A DNA stretch of 64,000 nucleotides from an uncultured Clostridia bacterium (GCA_944391965.1 CALXVH010000003.1:22551-86550), one strand, 5' to 3'; numbered from the stretch's first letter, positions 868 through 55,659 are shown. Program-made: numbers and translations. Notes: generated by a model not told the origin, from the letters alone.

Positions 868-1019
868 TTAATCCCCTCCTATGTCTTTTGTATTTCGACA
901 ATATTCTATCATATATTTGTTAGTTTTAACTAGCATTTTTTTATTGTTTAGAATATAATATTTACTATAAGAAATTATAAATATAATTCTTGTTATTATT
1001 TAAAGCCGAGGTGCTTAAT

Positions 1020-2012: not shown

Positions 2013-2018
2013 TTTTTT

Positions 2019-2095
2019 GGACGTTCCCAGGGGTTGGGAACGTTTTTTCGGGATTTGGGAGGTTTCCCGGGATTTAGGGACGTTCCTTTTTTCCC
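2019..2095 (+). repeat. REP-like palindromic element cluster (3-4 units), locus R1, 3' of asd
   Basis: Units read GGACGTTCCC, GGGAACGTT, GGGATTTGGGAGGTTTCCC and GGGATTTAGGGACGTTCCTTTTTTCCC. They match the family seen at 11 other loci. Confidence 0.85.
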
Positions 2096-2116
2096 TTCCA
2101 AATTTTTTTAGTGCTA

Positions 2117-2155
2117 AAAATAATCGCAAAACATATTTGCGATTATTTTTTCTTT
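2117..2155. terminator. hairpin terminator overlapping the 3' end of the DtxR-family gene
   Basis: AAAATAATCGCAAA / TTTGCGATTATTTT 14-bp stem with a T-run. Confidence 0.6.
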
Positions 2156-2589: not shown

Positions 2590-2738
2590 TCTCCTCCTTT
2601 TATCTAGTATTAATTATATAGTATTTTTTAGATATTTTCCAGAAATTATTTATTTTTTATAAATTATATCATATAATAACATAGAAAATAGCTACATATA
2701 ATTATATATGCTAAAAAATCTCTATAGGAGATGTTATT

Positions 2739-3623
2739 ATGAAAAAAATTATTTTTAAAGGTTGTGGTACTGCCATCTCCACACCATTTACAAATGATGG
2801 CGTAAATTTTGAGGAGTTTGGAAAATTAATAGAATTCCAAATTTCAGAAGGTGTTGATAGTATTATAGTATGTGGTACTACTGGCGAATCTTCTACAATG
2901 ACAGAGAAAGAGAAAAAAGATACCATTAAATATGCTATAGATAAAGTTAATGGTAGAATTCCTGTAATTGCTGGAACAGGTTCAAATAATACTGCTTCTG
3001 CAATAGAAATGTCAAAATACGCAGAATCTGTTGGTGCAGATGCTTTATTAGTTGTAACACCATATTATAATAAAACAACTCAAGCAGGTTTAGTAGAACA
3101 TTATAAAGCAATAGCAAACTCTACTTCTTTACCTATAATCGTATATAGCGTATCTAGTAGAACTGGTGTAAATATTACTCCAGAAACTTGTTTAGAACTT
3201 TCTAAAATTCCAAATATCGTGGCTGTAAAAGAAGCTAGTGGTAATATCTCACAAGTTGCTAAAATTGCAGCACTATGTAAAGATAATTTACATATCTATT
3301 CTGGAAATGATGACCAAATCGTTCCAATTTTATCTTTAGGTGGACTTGGTGTTATATCTGTTCTTTCAAATGTTGCACCAAAATATACACATGATATGGT
3401 TCAGAATTTCTTTGATGGAAATATTACAGAAGCTACACAAATGCAATTAGACGCAATAGATTTAGTAGGAAGTTTATTCTGTGAGGTAAACCCTATACCT
3501 GTAAAAGAGGCTTTAAATATGATGGGATATAATTATGGAGTTCCAAGACTTCCACTAGTTAGATTATCTGAAAAAAATCAAGAAAAATTAAGAACTTCTT
3601 TAAAAACTTTTGGATTAATTTAA
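2739..3623 (+). CDS. dapA: 4-hydroxy-tetrahydrodipicolinate synthase
   Basis: 294 aa with the GTTGES motif, YYNKT and the Schiff-base lysine context VAVKEASG. Confidence 0.93.
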   Translation: MKKIIFKGCGTAISTPFTNDGVNFEEFGKLIEFQISEGVDSIIVCGTTGESSTMTEKEKKDTIKYAIDKVNGRIPVIAGTGSNNTASAIEMSKYAESVGADALLVVTPYYNKTTQAGLVEHYKAIANSTSLPIIVYSVSSRTGVNITPETCLELSKIPNIVAVKEASGNISQVAKIAALCKDNLHIYSGNDDQIVPILSLGGLGVISVLSNVAPKYTHDMVQNFFDGNITEATQMQLDAIDLVGSLFCEVNPIPVKEALNMMGYNYGVPRLPLVRLSEKNQEKLRTSLKTFGLI

Positions 3624-3709
3624 TTGTTAAGATTTAATTAACTTTATTCACATAATATACCTCCCATGATATAATATATATAGGAATAAAAAATATGGGA
3701 TGTGAATAA

Positions 3710-4252
3710 ATGTTTTTTAAAAAATTTAAAAATGAAGAAAATTATTTAGAATTTAAAAATATAATAAATGATATTCGCTTACACGAAAAGGTAAAAGAAA
3801 TGAACAATTATATGCAACATTCTAGCACGTCATGTTATAACCACTGCTTGCATGTTGCATATTACACTTATTTAGTATGTAAAAAATTTAAATTAGATTA
3901 TTTTTCAGCAGCTCGTGCTGCTATGCTTCACGATTTCTTTTTATATGATTGGCATGAGCACAGAAAGGTTAATTCATTTAAAGAACTACACGCATTTTCT
4001 CATCCTAAAATCGCTTTAGAAAATTCTTTAAAAAATTTCACTTTAAATGATTTAGAAAAAGATGTAATAGTAAAACATATGTGGCCTTTAACTATAAGAT
4101 TGCCTAAATATAGAGAAAGTTATATTGTTACATTTGTAGATAAATATTGTGCTACAGTTGAATTTTTTAAATACTTAAATAAGAAATACAAGTTAAGAAT
4201 GATATATAGATATGCTTATATCTTTTTAACAATCTTTTTTGTAAGATTTTAA
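3710..4252 (+). CDS. small HD-superfamily phosphohydrolase
   Basis: The H..H and HD motif (HCLHVAYY...AAMLHDFFLYDW) are present. It lies between dapA and dapB. Confidence 0.6.
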   Translation: MFFKKFKNEENYLEFKNIINDIRLHEKVKEMNNYMQHSSTSCYNHCLHVAYYTYLVCKKFKLDYFSAARAAMLHDFFLYDWHEHRKVNSFKELHAFSHPKIALENSLKNFTLNDLEKDVIVKHMWPLTIRLPKYRESYIVTFVDKYCATVEFFKYLNKKYKLRMIYRYAYIFLTIFFVRF

Positions 4253-4345
4253 TTTGTTTTATCATTTTACAAATAGTCACAATATAATTATTACTTACAT
4301 AAGGAAATTTAATTATCTTTAAGCGATATGGAAAGGATCTAAAAA

Positions 4346-5098
4346 ATGAAAGTATTAATAAATGGAATAAATGGTAAAATGGGACAAGAAGTTGCAAATG
4401 TAATAGATAATGATAAAGATATTTTACTTCTTGGTGGTGTTGATAAAGAAAACACTGGAATTTATACATACCCAGTTTATACAAATACTTCAAACATAGA
4501 AGAAAAACCAGATGTTATAATTGATTTTTCTGTTCCAGTAGCTACTCTAAATATCTTAAAATATGCTAAGGAAAATCATGTTCCTATTGTTATTGCAACA
4601 ACTGGATTTACAGAAGAACAATTAAATGAAATAGAAGCTTACTCAAAAGATATTCCTATTTTTAAATCTGCTAATATGTCATATGATATAAATTTAATGG
4701 CAAAAATTGTAGCATCTTTAGCTAAAGAATTACCAGATACTGATATAGAAATTATAGAAACACATCATAATAGAAAAATAGATAGTCCAAGTGGAACAGC
4801 TTTATTTTTAGCAGATAGCATTAATGAAGCAAAAGACAATAAGATGGTTTATGAATTTGACAGACATAATAAACATGAAAAAAGAAATAAATTAGAAATT
4901 GGATTCTCTTCTATTAGAGGTGGAAATATCGTAGGTGAACATACAGTACAATTCTTTGGTGAGCATGAAACATTAGAAATAACACATAAATGTTATTCTA
5001 GAACTGTTTTTGCAAATGGCGCTGTTATGGCTGCTAAATACATAGTTAATAAAGATAATGGAATGTATAATATGAATGATTTAATTAATAATAAATAA
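4346..5098 (+). CDS. dapB: 4-hydroxy-tetrahydrodipicolinate reductase
   Basis: It has the N-terminal GINGKMG dinucleotide fold and the signature ETHHNRKIDSPSGTA. Confidence 0.92.
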   Translation: MKVLINGINGKMGQEVANVIDNDKDILLLGGVDKENTGIYTYPVYTNTSNIEEKPDVIIDFSVPVATLNILKYAKENHVPIVIATTGFTEEQLNEIEAYSKDIPIFKSANMSYDINLMAKIVASLAKELPDTDIEIIETHHNRKIDSPSGTALFLADSINEAKDNKMVYEFDRHNKHEKRNKLEIGFSSIRGGNIVGEHTVQFFGEHETLEITHKCYSRTVFANGAVMAAKYIVNKDNGMYNMNDLINNK

Positions 5099-5140
5099 AA
5101 ACAGCTCGTGCTTTGTTATAAAAGCACGAGCTGTTTTTAT
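5097..5140. terminator. bidirectional rho-independent terminator after dapB
   Basis: AAAACAGCTCGTGCTT / AAGCACGAGCTGTTTT 16-bp stem flanked by A/T runs. Confidence 0.85.
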
Positions 5141-5173
5141 TGCATAGAAAAAATCTTAGATTTTAACTTTTGC

Positions 5174-5620
5174 TTACATTACACCAACTCTGTAAAAACT
5201 GTCTCCAACTTTAAAGCCAGCATCGTTGGTTTCCGAAAGTTTCGTTTTCAACACTTGAACCCTTTCTTCTGATATGCAGACAATTGAAACTTCTTCGTCA
5301 CCTACATTTGTACAGTCTGCTTTATATTTCACAAACATAGGCCATGTGGAAATAGTACTATTTGTACTCTTTGGCATTGCAGCACAAAACATACAACCTT
5401 TTTCTTTTATGGTTGAATCGGTCTCCGGCATTTCTGCAAAAGATTCGATGTCATAAACCACATCCTTTGATAGTTCAAACTTGTTCTTATTTAGGATCCC
5501 ATATTCGCATATTGTGTCGTCTTCCACATCTGCAACAATAATTACAAAATGTGGATTCTCATCCTCTTGCATTCTCCGTCCATAAAGGTCGAAAATCTTA
5601 CAGTTTTTAAGTTTTCTCAT
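5174..5620 (-). CDS. hypothetical protein (island 1, gene A)
   Basis: 148-aa ORF with RBS AAAGGAG. It is GC-richer than its neighbours. The N-terminus LKNCKIFDLYGR...FVIIV is paralogous to the N-terminus of ORF 6472..6987. Confidence 0.7.
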   Translation of the reverse strand: MRKLKNCKIFDLYGRRMQEDENPHFVIIVADVEDDTICEYGILNKNKFELSKDVVYDIESFAEMPETDSTIKEKGCMFCAAMPKSTNSTISTWPMFVKYKADCTNVGDEEVSIVCISEERVQVLKTKLSETNDAGFKVGDSFYRVGVM

Positions 5621-5693
5621 GTTGTTTCTCCTTTCTTAGTTCCTCGCTACATTTAGCAAGTTTGCATCTTCTTTGTACATTTTTTGCAGTACA

Positions 5694-5722
5694 ATTTTAG
5701 CACATATTTACTTAAATTTCAA
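5694..5722 (-). promoter_or_regulatory. sigma-A type promoter for gene A
   Basis: On the minus strand, TTGAAA, a 17-nt spacer, then TAAAAT with an upstream TG (TGCTAAAAT). The predicted 5' UTR is about 75 nt. Confidence 0.5.
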
Positions 5723-5785
5723 ATATTGAATAAGTCATGAATTGTAATATCATATTAACTAAATATATTTTATACTTTACTTTAA

Positions 5786-5832
5786 TTAAAAAGAATAGAA
5801 GAACATCATAATAAAAATGTCCTCCTACTCTT
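5786..5832 (-). terminator. strand-specific terminator after gene B
   Basis: The minus-strand RNA AGAGUAGGAGGACAU pairs with AUGUUCUUCUAUUCU through several G-U pairs and is followed by a U-run. Confidence 0.6.
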
Positions 5833-5845
5833 TTTTGAAACAATA

Positions 5846-6433
5846 TTAAATTTTAGAAAGTGATACATATTTGCCTTCCGTATTACTGGCTTTTTTCACC
5901 TCTATATTGGCATTCCACATTCCTTCTGAATTTCTTGCAAACACTATGGCTTTCCGAAGGTTCTTTGAATCCTCATAAGTTAAGTATAATGGTAATTTCT
6001 CTTTTCTGTCCAATTTTATTCTTATAAAATAAACATTGGATAAAAAGTCACCAAGGTCACATTCTCCATCCACAAATCGAAGGCGTCTTATTACCTTTAC
6101 CTTATTCTTTTTTGCTTTTGGAATAAAAACATCATCCGGTACAGCTTCTGTTGACCTTACAAGGGCATAAATCTCACCAGTACATGGATCATATTCATCC
6201 GCAAAAACTATACGTTTTTCTGTAATTTCTTTCAAGACTAAATTATAAATCCATCGATTTGTTTTTAGCATTTTCCTTTTTACATTTGGAATTACAAATT
6301 CCACATATGGTTCTCTTTTTGTCTCTTTGTTATAATCTGGAATACGTAATGTAACTATTTCATCCTTTTGACGAACACTTACATTACCATTCCATTTCCG
6401 TTTGCATATTCCTTTGTTAATAAATAATCTCAT
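5846..6433 (-). CDS. hypothetical protein (island 1, gene B)
   Basis: 195-aa ORF with RBS GGAGG, 38 nt downstream of gene C. I recognise no motif. Confidence 0.65.
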   Translation of the reverse strand: MRLFINKGICKRKWNGNVSVRQKDEIVTLRIPDYNKETKREPYVEFVIPNVKRKMLKTNRWIYNLVLKEITEKRIVFADEYDPCTGEIYALVRSTEAVPDDVFIPKAKKNKVKVIRRLRFVDGECDLGDFLSNVYFIRIKLDRKEKLPLYLTYEDSKNLRKAIVFARNSEGMWNANIEVKKASNTEGKYVSLSKI

Positions 6434-6471
6434 AATACCTCCACAATTTAAAGTTTGTTTTTACTTCACTA

Positions 6472-6987
6472 TTACTCATCATATTTTGATGATAATTCAT
6501 AGAATTCATGCTCTCGGTAAATAAAACCTTTATCTTTTACATTTTCCAGTTTTACATGGATTTTAAAAATTGGTGAACATGGTTCTAATAATACTCCAGC
6601 TATTCTAATAATCTTTTCTTTTTCTTCCGGATGCTTCATTACATAGTAAACCAGTCTTGCCCAATCAACAAATGCTTCTTCGATTTCTTCACCAATTGCA
6701 GAATAAAAAGTAAATTTTCTCAGCCTTATAATACCAAAATTTAATGCTTCAATTTTAGCTAATGATGAGATTGTATACTCTTCTTCTAAGAAGTCGTCTT
6801 CATCTGAAAATCGTGTTTGAAAGATTCTTGTTTTTGGAAAATATAATCCTTCCCTATAAATTATATCTTCCGATTCATTCTTGCCTACAACTATAATAGG
6901 CATTATTTCTTCAGTTTGTAGTCTACCTAAAATCCGTCCTTCCTTGTTGAATATTTTGCAATTTTTTAATTCTCCTTTTTTCTCCAT
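6472..6987 (-). CDS. hypothetical protein (island 1, gene C)
   Basis: 171-aa ORF with N-terminus LKNCKIFNKEGR...PIIVV, similar to gene A. Confidence 0.7.
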   Translation of the reverse strand: MEKKGELKNCKIFNKEGRILGRLQTEEIMPIIVVGKNESEDIIYREGLYFPKTRIFQTRFSDEDDFLEEEYTISSLAKIEALNFGIIRLRKFTFYSAIGEEIEEAFVDWARLVYYVMKHPEEKEKIIRIAGVLLEPCSPIFKIHVKLENVKDKGFIYREHEFYELSSKYDE

Positions 6988-7054
6988 ACTGTTCCTTTCT
7001 GATGCTCATTACATTTGATGAGTCTTACACTAACTTCAACTTTGCTACACATAA

Positions 7055-7083
7055 ATTTTAGCATATTTTGTTTTTCTTTGCAA
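7055..7083 (-). promoter_or_regulatory. sigma-A type promoter for genes C-B
   Basis: On the minus strand, TTGCAA, a 17-nt spacer, then TAAAAT (ATATGCTAAAAT). The architecture is the same as the gene A promoter. Confidence 0.5.
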
Positions 7084-7138
7084 ACTTATGTATACCTAAC
7101 GTATTAATTTAATTCCTCCTTTATGCATCCAAAAAAAA

Positions 7139-7194
7139 GGGATTTAAGGAACGTCCCCAAATCCCGAATTTTTTCGCAGGACGCCTCAAATCCC
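7139..7194 (-). repeat. REP-like element doublet, locus R2, 3' of clpC
   Basis: GGGATTTAAGGAACGTCCCCAAATCCC plus a degenerate unit AGGACGCCTCAAATCCC. Confidence 0.85.
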
Positions 7195-7200
7195 TTTTCC

Positions 7201-9660
7201 TTATTTTGTAGCTTTTACCTTTAATTCTACTTTATCATCTTTAGCTACTAATTTTGCTTCTAGACCAGGTTTAATATTTCCATCTAATATTTCTTCTGCT
7301 AATTTGTCTTCTACAATATTTTGTATTGCTCTACGTAGTGGTCTTGCACCAAATTCTTTGTCTACACCTTTTTTAGCAATTAATTCTTTAACAGATTTAT
7401 CTATTTTAATATTTAAACCTTGTTCTACTAATCTTTGTTCTACATTCTTTAATAGTAAGTCTATAATGCTGTTAATTTCTTCATCATTTAATTTATGGAA
7501 TACTATAATATCATCAATACGATTTATAAATTCTGGTCTTAATTGTTTCTTCAATTCTGCCATTACGTTTTTCTTTATCTCTTCATATTCCTTAGCTTCA
7601 TCTTCTTCTGCTGAATTTGTAAATCCTAAAGATTTCTTTTCTGTAATTAATCTTGCACCTATATTTGATGTCATAATTATTACTGTATTCTTAAAGTTAA
7701 CTGTTCTTCCTTGGCTGTCTGTTAATCTACCATCTTCTAGAATTTGTAATAACATATTCATAACATCTGGGTGAGCTTTTTCTATTTCGTCAAATAATAT
7801 TACAGAATATGGTTTTCTTCTTATTTTCTCTGTTAATTGTCCACCATCATCAAAACCAACATATCCTGGAGGTGCACCAATTAATTTAGCAACAGAATGT
7901 GGTTCCATATATTCTGACATATCTACTCTTATCATAGCATCTTCAGTTCCAAATAAATTTTCTGCTAATGCTTTAGATAATTCTGTTTTACCAACACCTG
8001 TTGGACCTAAGAATAAGAATGAACCTATTGGTCTATTAGGATTTTTAAGTCCTACCCTACTTCTTCTTATAGCTTTTGCAACTGCATCTACTGCTTCATT
8101 TTGACCAATTACTCTTTTATGCAATTCTTTATCTAAATTCTTTAATTTCTTATTCTCGTCTTGGGTAATTTTTGCTGCTGGAATTCCAGTCCAACTTGCA
8201 ATTACCTTAGCAATATCTTCCTCTGTTAGCTTTGGAATTGCTTTGGTCTTTTTACTTTTCCATTTATTTCTTTCTGCTTCTAATTCTTCTTTTAGTTTAT
8301 TTACTTCGTCCCTTATTTTTGCAGCTTTTTCAAATTTTTGTACTTTTACAGCAGCTTCTTTTTCTTGATTCATCTTTTCTATTTTTTCTTCCATCTCTTT
8401 TAAACTATCTGGTTCTTCTAAAGAAGATAATCTAATTTTGGAAGAAGCTTCATCAACTAAATCTATAGCTTTATCTGGTAAAAATCTATCATTAATATAT
8501 CTGCTAGATAATTCTACAGCTGCATTTATAGCTTCATCTGTAATTTTTATATTATGGTGAGCTTCGTATTTATCTCTTATACCTTTTAATATTTCTACAG
8601 TTTCTTCATGAGTTGGTTCATTAACAGTTACAGGGCTAAATCTTCTTTCCAACGCACTATCTTTTTCTATATATTTTCTATATTCATTTAAAGTTGTAGC
8701 ACCAATTAATTGAATTTCTCCTCTTGCTAATAAAGGTTTTAGAATGTTAGCAGCATCAATAGCTCCTTCTGCTGAACCAGCACCTACTATTGTATGAATC
8801 TCATCTATAAATAGAATTACATCTCCAGCTTTTTTTACTTCATTTAAAGCTTTCTTTATTCTTTCTTCGAAGTCACCTCTATATTTTGCACCAGCAATCA
8901 TACTAGATAAATCGATTGTTACAACTCTCTTATCCTTTAAAATTTCTGGAACATCACCTTGTACAATTTTTTCTGCTAATCCCTCTACAACTGCTGTTTT
9001 ACCAACACCAGGTTCACCAATTAAACAAGGGTTATTTTTTGTTCTTCTAGAAAGAATTTGAATAACTCTTTCTATTTCATTCTTTCTTCCAATTACAGGG
9101 TCTAATTTTCCAAGACTTGCACTTTTAGTTAAATCTGTTCCATATTGATTTAATGTTGGTGTAGAATTAAAGCTTCCTGTTTTTCTATTTTGAGAACCAT
9201 CACTACTGTTTATATCTTCATCTTCTTCTAATACTTTTACTATTTCATTATATAATTTTTGTGGATTAATACCTAAATCTAATAAAATTCTTACAGCAAT
9301 ACTGTCTGCTTCTCTCATTATTCCTATTAAAATGTGCTCTGTTCCTATATAATCTGAATCTAGTTTTCTAGCCTCTAAAAATGCATTTTCTAACACTCTT
9401 TTAGTTCTAGGTGTAAATCCTAAACTTGTTATAGTTCTTTCTTCATCTTTGCCTATTAGATTCTCTATTTCATCTAGTACATTTTCAGAATTTATATTTT
9501 GGTTTTCTAGCACTTTACTTGCAACACCATTTTCCTCTTCTGTTAACCCATATAATATATGTTCTGTTCCTATATAGTTATGTCCTAATTCTATTGCAAT
9601 TTCTTTTGCAATTTCTAAAACATTTTGTGCACTATTAGTAAATTTATATGTCATCATCAT
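7201..9660 (-). CDS. clpC: ATP-dependent Clp protease ATP-binding subunit ClpC
   Basis: 819 aa with Clp_N repeats, two AAA+ modules (GEPGVGKTA, GPTGVGKTE) and a UVR linker. Confidence 0.95.
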   Translation of the reverse strand: MMMTYKFTNSAQNVLEIAKEIAIELGHNYIGTEHILYGLTEEENGVASKVLENQNINSENVLDEIENLIGKDEERTITSLGFTPRTKRVLENAFLEARKLDSDYIGTEHILIGIMREADSIAVRILLDLGINPQKLYNEIVKVLEEDEDINSSDGSQNRKTGSFNSTPTLNQYGTDLTKSASLGKLDPVIGRKNEIERVIQILSRRTKNNPCLIGEPGVGKTAVVEGLAEKIVQGDVPEILKDKRVVTIDLSSMIAGAKYRGDFEERIKKALNEVKKAGDVILFIDEIHTIVGAGSAEGAIDAANILKPLLARGEIQLIGATTLNEYRKYIEKDSALERRFSPVTVNEPTHEETVEILKGIRDKYEAHHNIKITDEAINAAVELSSRYINDRFLPDKAIDLVDEASSKIRLSSLEEPDSLKEMEEKIEKMNQEKEAAVKVQKFEKAAKIRDEVNKLKEELEAERNKWKSKKTKAIPKLTEEDIAKVIASWTGIPAAKITQDENKKLKNLDKELHKRVIGQNEAVDAVAKAIRRSRVGLKNPNRPIGSFLFLGPTGVGKTELSKALAENLFGTEDAMIRVDMSEYMEPHSVAKLIGAPPGYVGFDDGGQLTEKIRRKPYSVILFDEIEKAHPDVMNMLLQILEDGRLTDSQGRTVNFKNTVIIMTSNIGARLITEKKSLGFTNSAEEDEAKEYEEIKKNVMAELKKQLRPEFINRIDDIIVFHKLNDEEINSIIDLLLKNVEQRLVEQGLNIKIDKSVKELIAKKGVDKEFGARPLRRAIQNIVEDKLAEEILDGNIKPGLEAKLVAKDDKVELKVKATK

Positions 9661-16118: not shown

Positions 16119-16659
16119 CTAAATTTATAGTTTTAAACTCGTGTCCTTCTAAATCTTTAATTATAAATTCTTTATTTTCGTATATCATATAGGTATTAGG
16201 ATTTCCCTCTCTTGGATCAGATATAGAACCCGGATTTAAATACATATATTCTTTTGTATTTTCTATACATGGTACATGTGTATGTCCATGTATTAAAATC
16301 ACCTTTTTATCTGAAGGTGGTAAATGATATTTATTATATAAGTGACCATGTGTTATAAAAAAATCATAACCATCAACATTTAATTTTTTATAATCACTCA
16401 TTATTGGAAAATATAATAATGCTTGGTCTAAATCTGTATCACAATTTCCTCTTACTGCAATTATATAATCCATTAAATCATTCAGAATTCCAGCTATTTT
16501 CTGTCTTTCGTTATTTCTTCCAAATGATAAAAGCGATTTATTATATAGTAAATCTCCTAACAATATTAATTTTTCTGGTTGCTCTTTATTATATACCTCT
16601 TTAAGTTTATTACAAAAATATGCATTTCCATGTATATCTGATGCAAACATTAATTTCAT
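16105..16659 (-). CDS. YfcE/MJ0936-family metallophosphoesterase
   Basis: Motifs DIHGN, GDLL, GNCD, HGH and GHTH are present. It overlaps the next gene by 14 nt. Confidence 0.8.
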   Translation of the reverse strand: MKLMFASDIHGNAYFCNKLKEVYNKEQPEKLILLGDLLYNKSLLSFGRNNERQKIAGILNDLMDYIIAVRGNCDTDLDQALLYFPIMSDYKKLNVDGYDFFITHGHLYNKYHLPPSDKKVILIHGHTHVPCIENTKEYMYLNPGSISDPREGNPNTYMIYENKEFIIKDLEGHEFKTINLDECY

Positions 16660-23586: not shown

Positions 23587-23637
23587 TAGGGATTTAAACA
23601 ACGTCCCTAAATCCCCAGGGGATGTCCCAAATACCTA
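23587..23637 (-). repeat. REP-like element doublet, locus R3
   Basis: TAGGGATTTAAACAACGTCCCTAAATCCCC plus AGGGGATGTCCCAAATACCTA. Confidence 0.8.
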
Positions 23638-23692
23638 TGGCAGATTCCTACCCCATACCATCAAATTCATATAATAATTTTTACAATTTTTA

Positions 23693-23721: not shown

Positions 23722-23742
23722 GTGTTACATATTAATATAAAC

Positions 23743-23965
23743 GTTTGATAAGAGAATAGTAACATATTTAATTTTTTAAGAGAGTTTACGGTTGGTGTAA
23801 GTAAATAAAATTTATATGTGAATCTACTCTTAGATGTTTTTAGTGAAAACTAAACCGTAAGTTAGGCGGTTACCCTACTAATTGAGTGTATTATTTTTAT
23901 AATAACTTAAGGTGGTACCGCGGATTATATTCGTCCTTATATTTTATATAAGGACGATTTTTGTT
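23743..23965 (+). promoter_or_regulatory. T-box riboswitch leader, serine specifier (UCU)
   Basis: The stem I base is TGATAAGAGAATAGTA and the AGAGA bulge is present. The specifier loop is GAA-TCT-A at 23820-23826. The T-box sequence is AACTTAAGGTGGTACCGCGG at 23904-23923. The terminator TCGTCCTTAT...ATAAGGACGATTTTT lies at 23931-23965. Confidence 0.88.
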
Positions 23966-24302: not shown

Positions 24303-25586
24303 ATGATAGATATTAAATTTTTAAGAGAAAATCCTGACATTGTAAAGGAAAATATAAAGAAAAAATTTCAAAATGAAAAACTAGTTTTAGTTGATGAAGT
24401 TATAGATTTAGACAAAAAATCTAGAGAAGCTACACTTGCTGGTGACGAATTAAGAAATAAAAGAAAAACACTAAGTACTGAAATTGGTAATTTAATGAAA
24501 AATGGACAAAAAGAAGATGCTGAAAAAGTTAAAGCTGAAGTTCAAGAAATTAACAGTAAATTAGAAGAAAATGAGACTTTAGAGAACAAATATGCAGAAG
24601 AAATTAAAATTAGAATGATGAAAATTCCAAACATCATGCACGAGTCTGTTCCAATAGGAAAAGATGATAGCGAAAATGTAGAAATTGAAAAATTTGGAGA
24701 ACCTGTAGTTCCAGATTATGAAATTCCATTCCATGGTGAAATTTTAGAAGCTTTAGGTGGATTAGACTTAGATAGTGCAAGACGTGTTGCAGGACAAGGT
24801 TTTTACTACTTAATGGGAGATGTTGCAAGATTACATTCTGCTGTTTTAACATACGCAAGAGACTTCATGATTAATAAAGGTTTTACTTATTGTATACCTC
24901 CTTATATGATTAGAAGTGATGTAGTAACTGGTGTTATGAGTTTTGAAGAAATGGATGCAATGATGTACAAAATTGAAGGAGAAGATTTGTACTTAATTGG
25001 TACAAGCGAGCATTCTATGATTGGAAAATTTAAAGGACAAATTCTAAAAAAAGAGGATATGCCTTATACAATGACATCATATTCTCCATGTTTTAGAAAA
25101 GAAAAAGGTGCACATGGATTAGAAGAACGTGGTGTATATAGAATTCATCAATTTGAAAAACAAGAAATGATTGTTGTATGCGAACCAGAAGATTCTTGGG
25201 ATTGGTATAATAAAATGTGGTCATATACAGTAGAATTCTTTAGAAGTATGAATATTCCAGTAAGAACTTTAGAATGTTGTAGTGGTGACTTGGCAGACTT
25301 AAAAGCTAAATCTTGTGATGTAGAAGCATGGAGTCCAAGACAAAAGAAATATTTTGAAGTTGGAAGCTGTTCTAACTTAACGGATGCACAAGCTCGTAGA
25401 TTAGGAATTAGAATAAAAGGTGAAAAAGGAAACTATTTTGCACATACTTTAAACAACACTGTTGTAGCTCCACCACGTATGTTAATTGCAATTATGGAAA
25501 ACAATTATCAACCAGATGGAAGTGTAATCGTTCCAGAAGTATTAAGACCATATATGGGTGGATTAGAAAAAATTACAGTAAAATAG
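24303..25586 (+). CDS. serS: seryl-tRNA synthetase
   Basis: 427 aa with an N-terminal coiled-coil arm and class II motifs (FRKE, GSGLA-type region, TLNNT). Confidence 0.95.
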   Translation: MIDIKFLRENPDIVKENIKKKFQNEKLVLVDEVIDLDKKSREATLAGDELRNKRKTLSTEIGNLMKNGQKEDAEKVKAEVQEINSKLEENETLENKYAEEIKIRMMKIPNIMHESVPIGKDDSENVEIEKFGEPVVPDYEIPFHGEILEALGGLDLDSARRVAGQGFYYLMGDVARLHSAVLTYARDFMINKGFTYCIPPYMIRSDVVTGVMSFEEMDAMMYKIEGEDLYLIGTSEHSMIGKFKGQILKKEDMPYTMTSYSPCFRKEKGAHGLEERGVYRIHQFEKQEMIVVCEPEDSWDWYNKMWSYTVEFFRSMNIPVRTLECCSGDLADLKAKSCDVEAWSPRQKKYFEVGSCSNLTDAQARRLGIRIKGEKGNYFAHTLNNTVVAPPRMLIAIMENNYQPDGSVIVPEVLRPYMGGLEKITVK

Positions 25587-25590
25587 AAAA

Positions 25591-25621
25591 TAGGGATTGG
25601 GGGACGTTCCTTAAATCCCTA
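25591..25621 (+). repeat. REP-like element, locus R4, 3' of serS
   Basis: TAGGGATTGGGGGACGTTCCTTAAATCCCTA. Confidence 0.9.
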
Positions 25622-32210: not shown

Positions 32211-32241
32211 TAGGGATTTAAGGAACGTCCCCAAATCCCTA
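32211..32241 (-). repeat. REP-like element, locus R6, between divergent rsmA and the PBP gene
   Basis: TAGGGATTTAAGGAACGTCCCCAAATCCCTA. This is the exact reverse complement of the consensus form. Confidence 0.9.
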
Positions 32242-38041: not shown

Positions 38042-38093
38042 AGAGGGAAAAAAGGAACGTCCCCAAATCCCTGGGAATGTCCCCATATCCCTA
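38042..38093 (-). repeat. REP-like element doublet, locus R7, 3' of smc
   Basis: AGAGGGAAAAAAGGAACGTCCCCAAATCCCT plus GGGAATGTCCCCATATCCCTA. Confidence 0.85.
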
Positions 38094-42722: not shown

Positions 42723-43661
42723 ATGTTTGAGGAAAAATTTGATTTTTATGATAAAACAACTTTAAAATCATATAATTTAGATATCACTATGAGATATCAG
42801 TTAACTATGCTAGATAGTTTAGACCCCTTTACAAGAATTCATAGTGAAAATGTTGCAAGTATTACATGTAGGTTATGCGAATATTTACGTTGCGATAAGA
42901 ATTTTACTGCTTATTGTACTATTTGTGCATATTTACATGATATTGGTAAAATGTTTATTCCTGCAAAAATACTAAATAAACCTGACAAATTAACAGACGA
43001 AGAATTTTCTATAATGAAAACACATACACTTATAGGCTATAAAATGTGTATGGATGATATTAAATTAAGACCTTATGCACTAGGTCCAAAATATCATCAT
43101 GAAACTTTGGATGGTACAGGATATCCAGAAGGATTAGTTGGAAATTTAATTCCATATGAAGATCAAATTATAAAGGTTGCAGATGACTATGATGCATTAG
43201 TTACTAAAAGACAATATAAAACTCATATTCATATATCAGATACTTTAAAAGATTTAATTAAAGATACTGAACCAAATGTAAAAGTGGCAGCTCTTGATAA
43301 TGCAGCTCAAGGTGTAAAACTTGGAAAACTTAATAAAAAAGTTGTAAAGGCTTTATTTAAAGTTGTTATTGATGATACTTACTATGAAATTAGTTGTGTT
43401 ACAGGCTATGTTGACTATTTAAAAGATCAAATCAAAAGAATTGAACAAATCTTAGAATATGAAGAAAAAATGGATAAAGCTCATTCTGAAAAAAAGAAGA
43501 ATTACTATAAAGAAGGAATGGAAATGCTGTTTCAGGAAGGCGAAAATTTTGAAAATATTCATAAGATATATCATGAATATCAAACAGCATATTTAACAAG
43601 AAAAGAAATTGTAGAAAAATTATATGAAGAAATTAGAATCATAAAAAAATTACAAGTATAG
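42723..43661 (+). CDS. HD-GYP domain protein, paralogue 2
   Basis: Motifs HSENVA, YLHDIGK and HHETLDGTGYPEG are present. It is collinear with paralogue 1 from FDFYDKT to the C-terminal coiled coil. Confidence 0.8.
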   Translation: MFEEKFDFYDKTTLKSYNLDITMRYQLTMLDSLDPFTRIHSENVASITCRLCEYLRCDKNFTAYCTICAYLHDIGKMFIPAKILNKPDKLTDEEFSIMKTHTLIGYKMCMDDIKLRPYALGPKYHHETLDGTGYPEGLVGNLIPYEDQIIKVADDYDALVTKRQYKTHIHISDTLKDLIKDTEPNVKVAALDNAAQGVKLGKLNKKVVKALFKVVIDDTYYEISCVTGYVDYLKDQIKRIEQILEYEEKMDKAHSEKKKNYYKEGMEMLFQEGENFENIHKIYHEYQTAYLTRKEIVEKLYEEIRIIKKLQV

Positions 43662-43731
43662 GGATTTTGGGATGTTTCTTCGGTATTTGAGGGCATTCCT
43701 TCGGGATTTAGGGACGTTCCTTAAATCCCTA
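43659..43731 (+). repeat. REP-like element cluster (3 units), locus R8
   Basis: TAGGGATTTTGGGATGTTTCTTCGG, then TATTTGAGGGCATTCCTTCG, then GGATTTAGGGACGTTCCTTAAATCCCTA. Confidence 0.85.
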
Positions 43732-43750
43732 TTTTATTTGAATTATAATT

Positions 43751-51408: not shown

Positions 51409-51420
51409 TAAAGATTCGAA

Positions 51421-51449
51421 GGGATTCGGGGACGTTCCTTTTTTCCCTA
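51421..51449 (+). repeat. REP-like element, locus R9, inside the operon between the gamma and delta genes
   Basis: GGGATTCGGGGACGTTCCTTTTTTCCCTA. Confidence 0.85.
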
Positions 51450-53971: not shown

Positions 53972-53980
53972 AATAGTGAA

Positions 53981-54013
53981 AGAGGGATTTGGGGACGTTC
54001 CTTTTTTCCCTCT
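53981..54013 (+). repeat. REP-like element, T-tract variant, locus R10, 3' of porB
   Basis: AGAGGGATTTGGGGACGTTCCTTTTTTCCCTCT followed by TTTTC. Confidence 0.9.
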
Positions 54014-54074
54014 TTTTCAATATACTTAAGTTACAAATCTATGATGATTTTATTCTTTTATAACTTAAATTTTT

Positions 54075-54108
54075 AAGAGTTAAGATTTTCTTTATCTTAA
54101 CTCTTTTT
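54075..54108. terminator. 12-bp hairpin terminator
   Basis: AAGAGTTAAGAT / ATCTTAACTCTT followed by a T-run. It overlaps the stop codon of the wHTH gene. Confidence 0.7.
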
Positions 54109-54420
54109 ATTTATATTATTATCTATAATTTCAAACCCTAATCTTGTTATTTTATAAACTGTAACTGTTTTTCCTGTGTATTTACATGTTTTTTTCGCAG
54201 TTGCTTCTACAAGGCCCATTTTTTCCAATTCTGTTAATCTTGGGGCTGTTGTATTACGTTCGTCAGTATTGGTTATTTTTTGCTCATATAGTTCAACAGC
54301 AATTTCTTTAGCAGTTTTATTTCCTAAGCACAAACTTTCTAATATTGGTTCATATCTTACTTTCCTATTTGGCTTAATTTCTTCGAAACTTTTTCTTCTT
54401 GTTAGCCAAGTTATTTTCAT
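54097..54420 (-). CDS. winged-helix DNA-binding protein
   Basis: Trimmed to MKITWLTRRK because the longer ORF (to 54471) reads through REP R11. The wHTH segment is AKEIAVELYE...TAPRLTELEKMGLV. Confidence 0.6.
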   Translation of the reverse strand: MKITWLTRRKSFEEIKPNRKVRYEPILESLCLGNKTAKEIAVELYEQKITNTDERNTTAPRLTELEKMGLVEATAKKTCKYTGKTVTVYKITRLGFEIIDNNINKKS

Positions 54421-54434
54421 TTGTATATCTCCTT

Positions 54435-54464
54435 TAGGGATTTGGGGACGTTCTTTTAATCCCA
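54435..54464 (+). repeat. REP-like element, locus R11, 3' flank of the Y1 transposase gene
   Basis: TAGGGATTTGGGGACGTTCTTTTAATCCCA. Confidence 0.9.
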
Positions 54465-54480
54465 CTTTCACTATTATTTT

Positions 54481-55266
54481 TTATAAATTCTTATTTTTTA
54501 GTTTTTTCTTTATTAACGAAATTCTATTTTTACCTATTCCTAATATAGCACAAATATTTTTATTACTTATTTTATATTTTACATTTAAATAATTTTTAAA
54601 TTCTATTATTAAGCTATTAGATTTTCTAATTTCAGTTATAGATGTATTATACTTATTACAAAATTCCTTAATAATTATTTCTACACTTTGTCTTTCAATT
54701 TTTTCCAATCTTTCATCTTCATCAATAAAATGATATTCTATTCTTTCATCTATATCATTAGGTGCATATTTAAAATTTTTTCCAAAAATCGAACATAAAA
54801 TATCATTACTCCTTTCTGCCTCTATAAAATCTTTACATGAAGAATATTGATAAAAATGACCTCTTTCTATTATTCCAGCTTTCACTGGGTTTTCATGAAT
54901 ATATTTTATACAAGAAAGCAAATGAATGCCATTTTCTATTATTTCAGAATGATATCTATTGAAAAAAACATATCCAGATCTCTCTTCTTGTAAGTTATAA
55001 AATATAGCATATGCTGTATTTATTTTTCGCATAAGTGTTTCAGCTTTATTTATTTCTTCGATATGTATCAATAAATGTACATGATTATCCATAACGCAAT
55101 ATGCTATTAAATCTATCCCCTCTAACTCTTTAATACATTTATTCAATAAAAAAATATACTTTTCTTTGTATTCTTTTTTATAAAAAATAAATTCACTCTT
55201 TATACCTTTTGCAACAATATGTACAAATTTAGATACTATATTTTTTCTGGCAATTCTAGACATCAA
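54481..55266 (-). CDS. Y1 (HUH) transposase-like protein, REP-associated (RAYT-like)
   Basis: The HUH motif lies in CVMDNHVHLLIH and the Tyr helix in CIKYIHENPVKAG. The C-terminal extension has an HTH-like segment ICAILGIGKNRISLIKK. Confidence 0.8.
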   Translation of the reverse strand: MMSRIARKNIVSKFVHIVAKGIKSEFIFYKKEYKEKYIFLLNKCIKELEGIDLIAYCVMDNHVHLLIHIEEINKAETLMRKINTAYAIFYNLQEERSGYVFFNRYHSEIIENGIHLLSCIKYIHENPVKAGIIERGHFYQYSSCKDFIEAERSNDILCSIFGKNFKYAPNDIDERIEYHFIDEDERLEKIERQSVEIIIKEFCNKYNTSITEIRKSNSLIIEFKNYLNVKYKISNKNICAILGIGKNRISLIKKKLKNKNL

Positions 55267-55425
55267 CCCTCCTTTTATTTTACTAATTTGGATATAATTT
55301 TGGAATTAATAATAAATTAGATAATAATAAAAAAAATTAATTTTTAATTATAGGAAAAAAATGATTATAAAAATTTTAAAGATATAAAAATACTTAATTA
55401 TAATAGAACGTTCTTTAAAATAATT

Positions 55426-55456
55426 TAGGGATTTAAAGAACGTCCCCAAATCCCTA
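55426..55456 (-). repeat. REP-like element, locus R12, 5' flank of the Y1 transposase gene
   Basis: TAGGGATTTAAAGAACGTCCCCAAATCCCTA. The adjacent partial inverted copy GAACGTTCTTTAAA at 55406-55419 can pair with 55432-55445. Confidence 0.9.
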
Positions 55457-55659
55457 CCTAATATGTATACTATATTTCTTATTCTTCCTCTGGCGCTTCA
55501 ACTGGACAACAGTATTTTACGAACATATTAGTAATATTTTTGTAATATTGTAAAGTAGATCCTTTGGAAACATTGATATAACTGCATTTTAAACATATTC
55601 TTACGACAATCGATTCTAAGCCATTTTTATATATTAGTAATGTAATTATATACCTAAAA

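Follow-up and report, generated by a model that had tools for sequence, protein, structure and literature searches.

Genes and hairpin units at the locus

The window (the whole 64-kb stretch of DNA analyzed here, from an uncultured Clostridia bacterium) carries a Y1/HUH tyrosine transposase-like gene of the RAYT/TIRYT type at 54481..55263 on the minus strand, an open reading frame of 260 codons plus stop. A preliminary description of this DNA had given the coding sequence as 54481..55266; the reading frame is real, but its start is likely the ATG at 55263, closely preceded by a GGAGGG ribosome-binding site, and not the TTG at 55266. Gene callers give 260 amino acids for the protein on 22 contigs. 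The HUH codons lie at 55075-55083 and the codon of the catalytic Tyr121 at 54901-54903, both checked against the window sequence, and a C-terminal helical/HTH domain is encoded by approximately 54487-54690.

The gene is bracketed by two inverted copies of a repetitive extragenic palindrome (REP), and both the coordinates and the sequences reported for them earlier were found to be accurate. The upstream unit, TAGGGATTTGGGGACGTTCTTTAAATCCCTA (55426..55456, minus strand), has its G-rich arm first along the direction of the gene and lies 22 nt past the stop of a ferredoxin gene and 163 nt ahead of the Y1 start. It is kept in all nine non-chimeric contigs with an identical protein, and a simple terminator scan flagged it as terminator-like. 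Beside it stands a partial second unit, GAACGTTCTTTAAA (55406..55419, no strand assigned), able to base-pair with the upstream REP over the latter's 3' half. This pairing (55406-55419 with 55432-55445), proposed in the preliminary description, is the predicted minimum-energy fold (−9.6 kcal/mol, z −3.6) and gives an alternative hairpin of 12–13 bp; it is retained, with a longer A/T stem, in a species whose Y1 protein is 59% identical, and the partial unit occupies the place where relatives (L131 and L072) have a second repeat, the B unit. The downstream unit, TAGGGATTTGGGGACGTTCTTTTAATCCCA (54435..54464, plus strand), is inverted relative to the upstream copy, 17 nt past the stop of the Y1 gene and just ahead of the start of a small HTH gene. 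It is a degenerate hairpin with a weak predicted fold (−3.1 kcal/mol, z −0.6) compared with the consensus unit (−8.6 kcal/mol, z −4.5), and it is present in all contigs with an identical protein except L002, where the HTH cassette is also missing. Since each of the two REPs also forms the hairpin at the 3' end of a convergent transcription unit, ferredoxin in one case and pyruvate:ferredoxin oxidoreductase (por) in the other, the window alone cannot prove a specific link between gene and repeat.

The flanking copies had been described as sharing a private variant. The TCTTT variant is indeed confined, within the window, to these two copies; among 188 units from related genomes, however, T occupies this position in 13%, and the 59%-identity species carries the variant in its upstream flank only. 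As a signature of master copies, the variant thus holds only in part.

The protein matches Pfam Y1_Tnp (PF01797) with an E value of 1.2e-7 and 32.3 bits (cut-off 23). The Y1 HUH superfamily is characterized by an HUH motif and one catalytic tyrosine on the next helix, spaced about 58–67 residues apart; here the distance from HUH to Tyr121 is 58–60 residues, and H61-V-H63 and Tyr121 show no variation in an alignment of 39 homologs with 31–89% identity, so that the Y1 layout noted initially is well founded. Past the catalytic tyrosine lies a serine motif, Y138-x-x-S141-S142. Among the same 39 homologs, Y138 and S141 never vary and S142 hardly does. In a profile alignment the motif falls on W-P-F-S-T of the E. 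coli TnpA-REP structure 4ER8, a complex of TnpA-REP with a REP hairpin.

Profile and structure comparisons were used to place the protein among Y1 enzymes. The best NCBIfam match is REP_Tyr_transpos (NF047646; 58.7 bits, E = 5.9e-16), a score short of the equivalog cut-off of that model, 80 bits, and with the IS200 model NF033573, whose cut-off is 55 bits, the score is 16.5. A search of PDB with the single sequence returned only noise; with the family profile, 4ER8 was the best match (E = 4e-4), and IS-type transposases had E values of at least 0.057. The AlphaFold model (pLDDT 85.4) had 4ER8_A as its top PDB match in Foldseek (E = 1e-7, TM 0.68), with ISDra2 and IS608 at about 1e-4, and all 23 matches at E ≤ 0.001 were Y1 transposases. 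Both sequence profile and predicted fold place the protein nearer to E. coli TnpA-REP than to the IS200/IS608 transposases, in agreement with the earlier reading of the locus as a REP/RAYT-type unit. The W-Q residues of E. coli TnpA-REP are absent from the family in the profile alignment to 4ER8: the GTAG-recognition region with W94/Q95 (and R104), 'iWQPRF', is opposite 'vFrnRY' in the Y1 profile, and the family consensus is GYVFRNRY.

A C-terminal extension with an HTH-like segment had also been noticed, and is supported by Pfam HTH matches of homologs in this region (HTH_23, HTH_28, HTH_24, HTH_8, HTH_7, and others, each in 5–8 of the 39). The window protein alone has no significant Pfam HTH match; it aligns across the HTH region of the homologs and is modeled there as a helical bundle ending in a helix-turn-helix. 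A fold search with the isolated C-terminal domain gave nothing significant, the best plausible neighbor being the DNA-binding domain of DnaA (3PVP, E = 1.2).

Distribution and turnover of the REP units

The repeat that brackets the gene is the dominant repeat of the window, as first described. The core REP pattern has 12 matches, against 0.00 expected from 100 shuffles, and REP k-mers are the commonest non-low-complexity 12-, 14-, and 16-mers. With a looser pattern, 14 units are found, distributed over 11 sites and all outside open reading frames of at least 90 codons; an intergenic site occurs roughly every 6 kb. Apart from the two flanks, the sites are as follows: a doublet between convergent genes (2047..2096, plus strand); a unit with a T8 run after it, past the stop of an 819-amino acid gene (7138..7167, minus strand); a doublet whose first unit is degenerate (23588..23640, minus strand); a unit between convergent genes (25591..25621, plus strand); a unit of consensus form (32212..32241, minus strand); a doublet past the stop of a 1184-amino acid gene (38044..38093, minus strand); a tandem array of two truncated 21-nt units followed by a complete hairpin unit (43659..43732, plus strand); a unit within the por operon, in the porG-porD spacer (51419..51449, plus strand); and a TTTTTT-loop variant 12 nt past the stop of the por β-subunit gene (53983..54012, plus strand), which forms the left edge of the HTH cassette. 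Window REPs thus occur as singlets and direct tandem arrays, and no inverted REP pairs were seen in the window other than the partial pair beside the Y1 gene. The direction of the units flips repeatedly within the 64 kb, which does not support an orientation set by the replication strand. No Rfam RNA family covers the REP, the sole Rfam match in the window being an unrelated T-box.

Enrichment extends beyond the window and is genome-wide. An exact REP 20-mer is found in at least 34 species-level gut "Clostridium/Clostridia" metagenome-assembled genomes (MAGs); the collection scan matched at least 113 eight-kb blocks, and these counts are lower bounds. Of the units counted, about 97% are extragenic. 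The 188 units have the consensus ta-GGGATTT-R-GGGACGTTCC-TT-aaaT-CCC with a T-rich stretch after it, corresponding to the unit TAGGGATTTGGGGACGTTCCTTAAATCCCTA, and its hairpin stem contains two G.T pairs. In the 188-unit logo, positions −2/−1 ahead of the REP favor T/A, and G is found at −3 in only 14%; a GT[AG]G foot is not conserved, and the copy upstream of the Y1 gene happens to read GTAGGG. The REP variant is uniform within a species and the same as in the flanks of its gene; in L127, for instance, it is GGGACGGTCC throughout. At the porG-porD spacer, L127 has the variant of its own species, and L131 has a REP that belongs to a different family.

A general role of the REPs in termination was considered and received partial support. 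With crude ORF calling, REPs between convergent gene pairs were co-directional with the nearer gene in 37 cases versus 11, but in tandem gene pairs the orientation relative to the upstream gene was only mildly biased (56 versus 47); because of this mild bias, a terminator role is not general.

Evidence for turnover comes from the region between the por genes and the Y1 gene. A small winged-helix/HTH gene of 107 amino acids (54097..54420, minus strand) lies here as a variable cassette between two direct REP units; it matches phrog_1123 (E = 4e-15) and gives weak PadR and other HTH matches. The gene is present in L003-5, has a 129-bp internal deletion in L001, L006, L007, and L009, and is absent from L002. 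The cassette is enclosed by an 11-nt inverted repeat, with an outer arm, AATAGTGAAAG (53972..53982, plus strand), and a partner arm, CTTTCACTATT (54465..54475, plus strand), directly 3' of the downstream flanking REP. In L002, the REP of 53983-54012 alone links AATAGTGAAAG to CTTTCACTATT, and in this cassette-free allele the two arms lengthen the REP stem by 11 bp. The breakpoints of the indel fall exactly at the 3' feet of the two REPs (CCCT^CTTT and CCCA^CTTT). Homologous recombination would not be expected to yield this allele, because a crossover in the 17 identical bases gives another product.

The number of REP units also varies at orthologous sites between genomes that are 88–95% identical. 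The array site at 43659-43732 differs in the related species L064 and L101, the doublet at 38044-38093 has four units in L093, and the single unit at 32212-32241 has two there. Such changes in unit number could stem from replication slippage.

Inheritance of the gene and its association with the repeats

The identical Y1 protein was found on 22 metagenome contigs, in one genomic context only. An apparent second context, on contig L007, was rejected as a likely assembly chimera, because the GC content falls from ~43% to ~24% about 130 bp upstream of the gene in a contig of 2x coverage. Homologs that are 59, 55, and 42% identical lie at this same site between ferredoxin and por genes, and vertical inheritance of the gene is concluded from this shared site. 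The check on copy number that had been suggested thus returned a single-copy gene at one conserved chromosomal site: in 879 kb of repeat-bearing DNA from 34 MAGs plus the window, 220 REP units were counted against 4 homolog loci in the MAG DNA. The window comes from an uncultured gut MAG lineage, named Clostridium sp. or Clostridia bacterium at NCBI, and its genome has a GC content of 28.5%.

The absence of a tnpB partner and of IS-like ends, noted at the outset, was also borne out. No tnpB lies at the Y1 locus or on the contigs with the identical protein, and no conserved sequence was found past the REPs: one flank is formed by the ferredoxin gene or a prophage, the opposite one by the HTH cassette or por. 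Assignment of the Y1 gene to the prophage was rejected, since it has no PHROGs match and is present in strains without the neighboring prophage. Matches to the protein were rare among plasmids (16 of 72,556 records) and among phages (1 of 50,697), and all were below 37% identity.

It is the comparison across lineages, and not the window alone, that shows the association between gene and REP to be specific. Y1 homologs were found in four contexts independent of one another (fer4/por, queA/tgt in L096, and those of L135 and L138), and the bracket has the same polarity in all four: the coding strand reads GGGAC upstream of the gene and the complement of this motif downstream. Each lineage has its own stem (GGGATTT, GTGCCAAAA, GTGAAATTT, and TTGACACA), and the GGGAC(G/A) core, which is similar to the GGGGWSAS motif of TIRYT inverted repeats, is constant. 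This core lies within a stem of at least 6 bp in 51% of 74 occurrences, compared with 9% of 124 for control 7-mers.

In L131, L072, and L127, the flanks of the Y1 gene are composite, with the structure A-B...B'-A'. The A unit in the window reads GGGGACGT and agrees with GGGGWSAS at 6 of 8 positions; B units beside homologs and in dispersed doublets read GGGGACAC or GGGGACAG, a full match. Composites of the form A-B-spacer-B'-A' with no gene inside occur in L074, L021, L046, and L037 and resemble REPINs. Composites of 105–125 bp, along with tighter inverted pairs, were seen in these four MAGs and in L055 and L019.

Relation to described systems and interpretation

On sequence features, the nearest described class appears to be the HTH-bearing TnpA-Y1 subclass 2.1, with which the TIRYT/TIRtron class (Di Nocera et al. 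2013, PMC3733652) has been equated (Quentin et al. 2018, PMC6006769), and we describe the protein as subclass 2.1-like. The HTH types recorded for this subclass are Bac_DnaA_C, HTH_23, or HTH_28 (PMC6006769, PMC3733652). Features shared with TIRYTs are the long Y1 protein, the C-terminal HTH of HTH_23/HTH_28 type, the serine motif after the catalytic tyrosine, and the position of the gene within inverted repeats. The TIRYT repeats carry a GGGG-A/T-C/G motif, GGGGWSAS, which the B units of relatives fit in full and the A unit of the window in part. Some TIR families are, like the REPs here, self-complementary, repeated in the genome, and found in dimers or clusters. The system differs from TIRYTs in its host, gut Clostridia, and in its flanking repeat, a compact 30-nt REP-like hairpin found in at least 34 species; for subclass 2.1 genes, Quentin et al. 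reported no REP-like sequences alongside (PMC6006769).

The E. coli-type RAYT with GTAG-footed REPs (PMC2817692, PMC3333891) is not the nearest class, because a GT[AG]G foot is lacking here and the protein scores under the NCBIfam RAYT cut-off. Common to both are a single-copy Y1 gene within inverted copies of extragenic palindromes, the best structural and profile match (4ER8), non-Watson-Crick positions in the REP stem (here the two G.T pairs), and clustered arrays of variable unit number. E. coli TnpA-REP cuts C^T beside the hairpin, and the breakpoints of the cassette indel are compatible with this. In contrast to the E. coli system, W94/Q95 are replaced, the protein is ~100 amino acids longer with an added HTH, and the genome has a low GC content. 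REPIN-RAYT systems of Pseudomonas and Enterobacteria (PMC3116915, PMC5581495) likewise have a vertically inherited, single-copy RAYT in which each paralog appears to own a repeat family, and the inverted REP doublets of the relatives, with a short spacer and a length of ~105–125 bp, are like non-autonomous elements. Unlike REPINs, the window species has singlets and direct tandems, and the composite arms of its relatives comprise two units (A-B); REPINs have been reported for RAYT groups 2 and 3 only (Bertels et al. 2017, PMC5581495). With IS200/IS605 TnpA (IS608, ISDra2), the protein shares the HUH/Y1 core and fold and probably the recognition of hairpins in single-stranded DNA, but the gene is not multi-copy, lacks tnpB and same-strand left and right ends, encodes an extra domain, and has a low IS200 score.

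The preliminary description held such systems to be little documented in Firmicutes. This stands for the repeat association, since no description of such a system in Clostridia was found in the literature searched, but not for the protein: RAYT-family proteins have already been recorded in Clostridia (PMC5581495), and novelty therefore lies in the documented association with the repeat.

Taken together, we consider it likely that the locus is a REPtron/TIRtron, that is, a chromosomal gene present once and passed on vertically, encoding a Y1 HUH single-stranded DNA endonuclease/ligase, together with the REPs that this enzyme recognizes. REP binding, the position of cleavage, catalytic activity, present-day mobility, and the terminator role of the system are what we infer from the comparisons above. 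On the model of E. coli TnpA-REP and IS608 TnpA, REPs extruded as hairpins in single-stranded DNA would be bound by the Y1 enzyme, which would recognize them by the shape of the hairpin and by the conserved GGGAC(G/A) motif at its apex. Tyr121, with a metal held on H61/H63, would cut the foot of the hairpin or nearby linkers and rejoin the strands. Excision, insertion, and amplification of REPs by this route could give rise to the singlets, 21-nt tandem arrays, A-B doublets, and the A-B-spacer-B'-A' elements of the relatives. Many REPs stand just past stop codons with T-runs after them and have probably been co-opted as terminators or 3' stabilizers of mRNA.

That the hairpins are instead a family of intrinsic terminators or structural elements with no relation to the Y1 protein, with the bracket arising by coincidence from the convergent ferredoxin and por ends, appears improbable. 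The terminator-like upstream REP right after the ferredoxin gene, the T-rich 3' tails of the units, and the co-direction with the nearer gene in convergent pairs are what such a coincidence would lead one to expect, as is the downstream REP of L002, L131, and L133, which doubles as the hairpin past the por stop. It would not account for the contexts in L096, L135, and L138, which are bracketed alike with different stems and the same GGGAC core, nor for gene-less composites that mirror the A-B/B'-A' structure at the gene or REP variants that co-vary with the gene flanks of their species. Terminators, moreover, do not normally share 20 nt across at least 34 species, and the nearest solved structure is that of a REP-binding nuclease. 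There is still less to be said for an ordinary IS200/IS605 solo tnpA whose subterminal hairpins resemble the genomic repeat by chance, which we regard as very improbable: the match to Pfam Y1_Tnp, a model built on IS200, and the ends of IS200-type elements, which bear subterminal hairpins and lack terminal inverted repeats (PMC3333891), are compatible with it, but the protein falls far under the IS200 cut-off, is 260 amino acids long with an additional HTH domain, and is encoded once per genome, at a locus that lacks tnpB and keeps its synteny in homologs of as little as 42% identity. Nothing is conserved past the REPs, and the flanking hairpins are inverted, whereas IS200/IS605 ends are on the same strand.

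A domesticated Y1-HTH protein that moves no DNA, for which the REP/GGGAC units are sites of a host function and the repeats change by recombination or slippage, is rather unlikely in our judgment. Such a function could lie, for example, in transcription, at the replication fork, or in organization of the nucleoid. Strict synteny and single copy over deep divergence would suit domestication, and Bertels et al. view single-copy RAYT groups outside groups 2 and 3 as co-opted (PMC5581495; bioRxiv 10.1101/2021.07.10.451892). The C-terminal HTH, whose best (non-significant) structural neighbor is the DnaA DNA-binding domain, suggests binding of double-stranded DNA, and variation in tandem units fits slippage. 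Against this, the HUH histidines and catalytic tyrosine are invariant in 39 of 39 homologs, which argues that catalysis has been retained. The gene-less A-B...B'-A' composites, together with different REP families at one intergenic site, indicate transposition-like spread, and the cassette breakpoints at REP feet are unlike homologous recombination.

Building on the REPtron/TIRtron reading, a more specific scheme is put forward tentatively, its parts being jointly possible rather than probable. In this scheme a subclass 2.1/TIRYT enzyme would drive a distinct REP system of gut Clostridia, recognizing an apical GGGAC(G/A) on lineage-specific stems in place of a 5' GTAG foot, with each paralog having its own stem family. 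Cutting at the foot would capture and release cassettes such as the 107-amino acid HTH gene, making REP sites insertion hotspots, and vertical inheritance of the system at a single site would go back to before the divergence to 42% protein identity.

The arrangement described here is well known in Proteobacteria and barely described in Firmicutes, REP/RAYT biology being almost wholly proteobacterial, and the main phylogenomic survey assigns no DNA partner to the large HTH-bearing Y1 subclass. In common gut MAGs, where they mark an intergenic site about every 6 kb, REPs can break or mis-join metagenome assemblies and vary between strains. They probably also affect transcript 3' ends, and one such unit lies within the pyruvate:ferredoxin oxidoreductase operon. 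The lineage offers a natural series, in which one syntenic gene ranging from 100% to 42% identity is accompanied by species-uniform repeat variants, by paralogs with different stems and one core, and by gene-less composites. Such a series would make hairpin recognition, the co-evolution of enzyme and repeat, and the role of the HTH domain testable.

The Y1 protein and its locus

The Y1 transposase-like gene runs on the minus strand from an ATG at 55263 to a stop codon at 54481–54483 and encodes 260 amino acids. The preliminary description had read the frame as 54481–55266; the frame itself is real, but 55266 is an upstream TTG, and the ATG, which is preceded by GGAGGG, was taken as the start. 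Its other coordinates, the HUH and tyrosine residues and the inverted flanking repeats read as described there. The motif DNHVHLL supplies H61-V-H63, and Tyr121 lies in CIKYIHENPVKAG. Y1_Tnp was the only Pfam match (E 1.2e-7). The best NCBIfam model was the REP-associated tyrosine transposase at 58.7 bits (cut-off 80), and the IS200 model reached 16.5 bits (cut-off 55), a ranking that agrees with the assignment first proposed.

Among 5.8 billion proteins searched, 265 relatives were found; the 120 listed were all genomic or metagenomic and mostly unnamed or annotated "putative transposase." In an alignment of 39 relatives (31–89% identity), H61, H63 and Y121 were invariant, as was Y138-x-x-S141 directly past the catalytic helix, with S142 nearly so. 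The C-terminal extension had been said to contain an HTH-like segment, and the last 45 residues indeed aligned as a helix-turn-helix (...NKxIxxxLGIxKxxI...), with HTH_23, HTH_28, HTH_24, HTH_8, HTH_7 and related Pfam models each matching 5–8 of the 39 homologs. A few homologs (P0056, P0059 and P0085; alignment A1, columns 301–328) carry an additional tail past this domain with a common (D/L)F(K/L)(E/P)RP motif.

In a family profile search, the top solved relative was E. coli TnpA-REP (4ER8, E 4e-4), followed by the ISDra2 and IS200 transposases (E 0.057–0.13). The AlphaFold model (pLDDT 85.4) likewise matched 4ER8_A, a REP-associated transposase with its REP hairpin, first in the PDB (E 1e-7, TM 0.68 on target), with the ISDra2, IS608 and IS200 transposases next (E ~1e-4). 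A fold search with the isolated C-terminal domain (model pLDDT 74) gave no significant structural neighbor; the most plausible, the DnaA DNA-binding domain, was not significant (E 1.2, probability 0.69).

The identical protein was found on 22 metagenome contigs. All informative ones place the gene between the pyruvate:ferredoxin oxidoreductase (por) operon, at its 3′ end, and a small ferredoxin gene that follows PSP1 and holB-like genes; some also carry a prophage insertion on the ferredoxin side. L005, a Brazilian metagenome contig, matches the window at 100% identity, and the species representatives CAMMLJ01 and UMGS1570 do so at ~94–95%. Homologs occupy the same position between ferredoxin and por in other species at 59% (P0011), 55% (P0017) and 42% identity (P0066 and P0056); inheritance has therefore been vertical, at one site and over deep divergence. 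An insertion sequence was considered and rejected. As had been noted from the sequence, no tnpB was found at the locus, either among the window ORFs or on the contigs with the identical protein. Repeat-bearing DNA totaling 879 kb (the window and 34 species-level MAGs) contained 220 repeat units, and within this set a Y1 homolog was present at just four loci of MAG DNA. Matches outside chromosomes were rare and distant: 16 of 72,556 plasmid records and one of 50,697 phage records, all below 37% identity.

The most plausible reading of the one discordant context, contig L007, is an assembly chimera: about 130 bp before the gene, GC content falls from ~43% to ~24%, with 2x coverage. Here positions 1–5850 (43% GC; radical SAM, aspS) are joined to the RAYT locus at 5850–7555 (24% GC) within the RAYT promoter region, a junction that is probably chimeric and illustrates how RAYT-type loci can mislead context searches.

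A prophage (endolysin, holin and tail fiber genes) has inserted into the ferredoxin gene at its 3′ end and extends from 55506 to at least 64000. Its att core (55479–55505, CCAGTTGAAGCGCCAGAGGAAGAATAA) restores the end of the gene, with the upstream REP unit 22 nt away. The ferredoxin gene is intact and prophage-free in L001, L003 and L004, and the site holds different prophages in L002, L124–126 and L130; it is therefore a prophage integration hotspot adjoining the RAYT locus.

The repeat family

In the direction of the gene, the upstream flanking unit lies at 55456–55426 on the minus strand (TAGGGATTTGGGGACGTTCTTTAAATCCCTA) and the reverse-oriented downstream unit at 54435–54464 on the plus strand (TAGGGATTTGGGGACGTTCTTTTAATCCCA). 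The core pattern matched 12 times in the window against 0.00 expected from 100 dinucleotide-preserving shuffles, and the repeat's k-mers are the commonest non-trivial 12-, 14- and 16-mers of the window; the repeat is not a chance match. A looser pattern found 14 units at 11 sites, none within ORFs of at least 90 amino acids. As single-stranded DNA, the consensus unit is predicted to form a 14-pair stem with two G·T pairs and a CGT loop (−8.6 kcal/mol, z −4.5); on the opposite strand, two A·C mismatches replace the G·T pairs (−7.5 kcal/mol). The downstream flanking unit folds poorly (−3.1 kcal/mol, z −0.6). The partial copy at 55406–55419 is predicted to pair with the upstream unit, in its 3′ half, as suggested previously (−9.6 kcal/mol, z −3.6). 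A REP doublet lies ~100 nt upstream of a T-box leader (23736–23941, plus strand; Rfam RF00230, 112.7 bits), which precedes a 427-aa gene (24303–25586).

Enrichment of the repeat elsewhere, on which the first reading depended, was found by an exact scan for GGGATTTRGGGACGTTCYTT in one genome per species: at least 113 eight-kb blocks from at least 34 assemblies contained it, both counts being lower bounds. Among the matches listed, every source was a gut MAG under the name "uncultured Clostridium sp.," "Clostridia bacterium" or "Bacillota bacterium." Judged from a crude ORF call, ~97% of units are extragenic. The logo of 188 units reads ta-GGGATTT-R-GGGACGTTCC-TT-aaaT-CCC and then a T-rich tail; its position −3 has no conserved G, so it lacks the GT[AG]G foot that is canonical for proteobacterial REPs.

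Units occur as singlets and in several arrangements. Direct tandem arrays consist of truncated 20–21-nt units closed by one complete hairpin (43659–43732 and 38044–38093 in the window); further arrays of truncated units were seen in L012 (6879–6940), L100 (5474–5554) and L093, all contigs used for comparison. In doublets, the hairpin (A unit) is joined at an offset of 34–36 nt by a second type, the B unit (GGGGACAC or GGGGACAG), and several related species carry symmetric A-B-spacer-B′-A′ composites of ~105–125 bp, as well as tighter inverted pairs. Unit number at orthologous sites varies between 88–95% identical genomes: the window has one unit at 32220 and two at 38052, L093 has two and four, respectively, and the array at 43661 also differs between related genomes. 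This variation could reflect TnpA-REP-style amplification or slippage.

Many units sit just past stop codons with T-runs after them. Their orientation bias is strong at convergent gene pairs (37:11) and slight at tandem pairs (56:47), so a terminator or stabilizer role is likely for a subset of units only. The por operon has a unit at 51419–51449 in the porG–porD spacer; this spacer holds a species-specific variant in L127 (~14296) and a unit of another family in L131 (13297), and no unit with an RGGGAC[GA] core was present anywhere in the por operon of L133. Comparison of these sequences points to repeated, independent occupation of the spacer.

Association of gene and repeat

The inverted bracket would be a by-product if the gene simply lay between two convergent transcription units that end in hairpins. 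The upstream unit, 22 nt past the ferredoxin stop codon, was indeed flagged as terminator-like, and the downstream unit doubles as the hairpin after the por stop codon in some relatives. The window alone thus leaves a specific link unsettled, and it is the comparative data that decide. In syntenic relatives, the gene flanks follow each species' own repeat variant; in L127, GGGATTGAGGGACGGTCC is found at both flanks and in all other copies in the 20-kb locus. The gene has A-B upstream and B′-A′ downstream in L131, L072 and L127, the architecture of the gene-less composites. Against a by-product, the bracket recurs around homologs in three unrelated contexts, and its polarity is the same: the coding strand carries GGGAC upstream of the gene and the complement of GGGAC downstream. 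In L096, GTGTGCCAAAAGGGACGTACCTTTTTGGCACA brackets a 36%-identity paralog that lies between queA and tgt; P0111 (L135) has GTGAAATTTAGGGACGCTTGAAAAATTTCAC, with the inverted partner immediately past a neighboring YjbR gene; and P0109 (L138) has 60–90-nt inverted repeats made of TTTGACACATTTGGGGACGGACTC units, of which 20 kb contain seven. Stems vary by lineage (GGGATTT, GTGCCAAAA, GTGAAATTT, TTGACACA, ATGTCCCA), and the apical GGGAC(G/A) is constant. This core lay within a contiguous stem of at least 6 bp in 51% of 74 occurrences versus 9% of 124 for composition-matched control 7-mers. A cognate enzyme–substrate pair predicts such a constant core on differing stems around the gene in four independent contexts; coincidence does not.

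Two or three GGGAC-core families are possible per genome (L131 at 4064–4233, 13297 and 20115), and that one extra hairpin family brackets the queA/tgt paralog suggests one paralog per family. Extra families with the same GGGAC(G/A) core on other stems (GTGTCAAAA..., TTGCCAAAA..., ATGTCCCATT...) were observed in related genomes, at 4064–4233, 13297, 16505–16540 and 20115–20149 in L131, 834 and 1677 in L096, 4871 in L099 and 4341 in L123.

Downstream of the Y1 gene, a 107-aa winged-helix gene (54097–54420, minus strand; phrog_1123, E 4e-15) sits between direct repeat units at 53983–54012 and 54435–54464 (locus 53972–54475). It is intact in some strains, reduced to a pseudogene by a 129-bp internal deletion in others and absent in L002. 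In L002 the empty allele, AATAGTGAAAG-[por-type unit]-CTTTCACTATT, is a longer palindrome without mismatches; the filled allele equals this plus spacer, gene and second unit, inserted directly past ...TTTTTTCCCT. Crossover or slippage in the 17 bases common to both units was rejected, since the 3′ half left behind would then be that of the other unit; this places the breakpoints at the CTTT tetranucleotide of each hairpin's 3′ foot (CCCT^CTTT and CCCA^CTTT). A C^T beside the hairpin is the sole sequence requirement of E. coli TnpA-REP cutting (PMC3333891), with which this single, inferred event would be compatible. In the species with the 59%-identical RAYT, the HTH cassette is separated from a contig-ending REP pair by a 5.3-kb SpaA/MucBP surface-protein gene (L124, 10707–16046; also L057 and L126); por directly follows in the window's species. 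The surface-protein gene is another large insertion with REP units at its bounds.

Relation to known systems and proposed activity

The system resembles E. coli-type RAYTs and REPtrons in its fold, its single vertical copy and the position of the gene between inverted REPs, but differs in the GTAG foot, in W94/Q95 and in a score below the equivalog cut-off. TIRYTs and TIRtrons were described by Di Nocera et al. (PMC3733652) and correspond to TnpA-Y1 subclass 2.1 of Quentin et al. (PMC6006769). With these it has in common the length of the protein, its C-terminal HTH_23/HTH_28/DnaA_C-like domain, the serine motif and inverted repeats flanking the gene. TIRtron repeats share GGGGWSAS, to which the window's unit conforms at 6 of 8 positions and the B units of relatives in full; some TIRtron repeats are self-complementary and genome-repeated. 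On these features, they appear to be the closest description of the Clostridial system. The REP/RAYT-type reading is thus supported and the finding real, with the refinement that the branch is HTH-bearing and TIRYT/subclass 2.1-like, not that of a canonical GTAG-REP RAYT.

If it works as TnpA-REP and IS608 TnpA do (PMC3333891), the enzyme would bind the hairpin when the DNA is single-stranded. Tyr121 would cut, with H61 and H63 holding the metal, and strands would be rejoined through a 5′-phosphotyrosine intermediate, allowing excision, insertion and amplification of units; tandem arrays could arise by strand transfer between neighboring cuts. The HTH domain may serve to recognize the GGGAC motif or to hold the enzyme on DNA.

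Quentin et al. did not find REP-like sequences beside subclass 2.1 genes (PMC6006769), and Bertels et al. noted Group 1 RAYTs in Clostridia and tied REPINs to groups 2 and 3 only (PMC5581495). No description of a REP/RAYT or TIR/TIRYT system in Clostridia was found in the literature searched. The Clostridial case adds a new host group with unusually clear comparative support, useful to the specialist rather than startling. Because of its conserved-core, variable-stem pattern and deep synteny, it is a good model for enzyme–repeat recognition and co-evolution.
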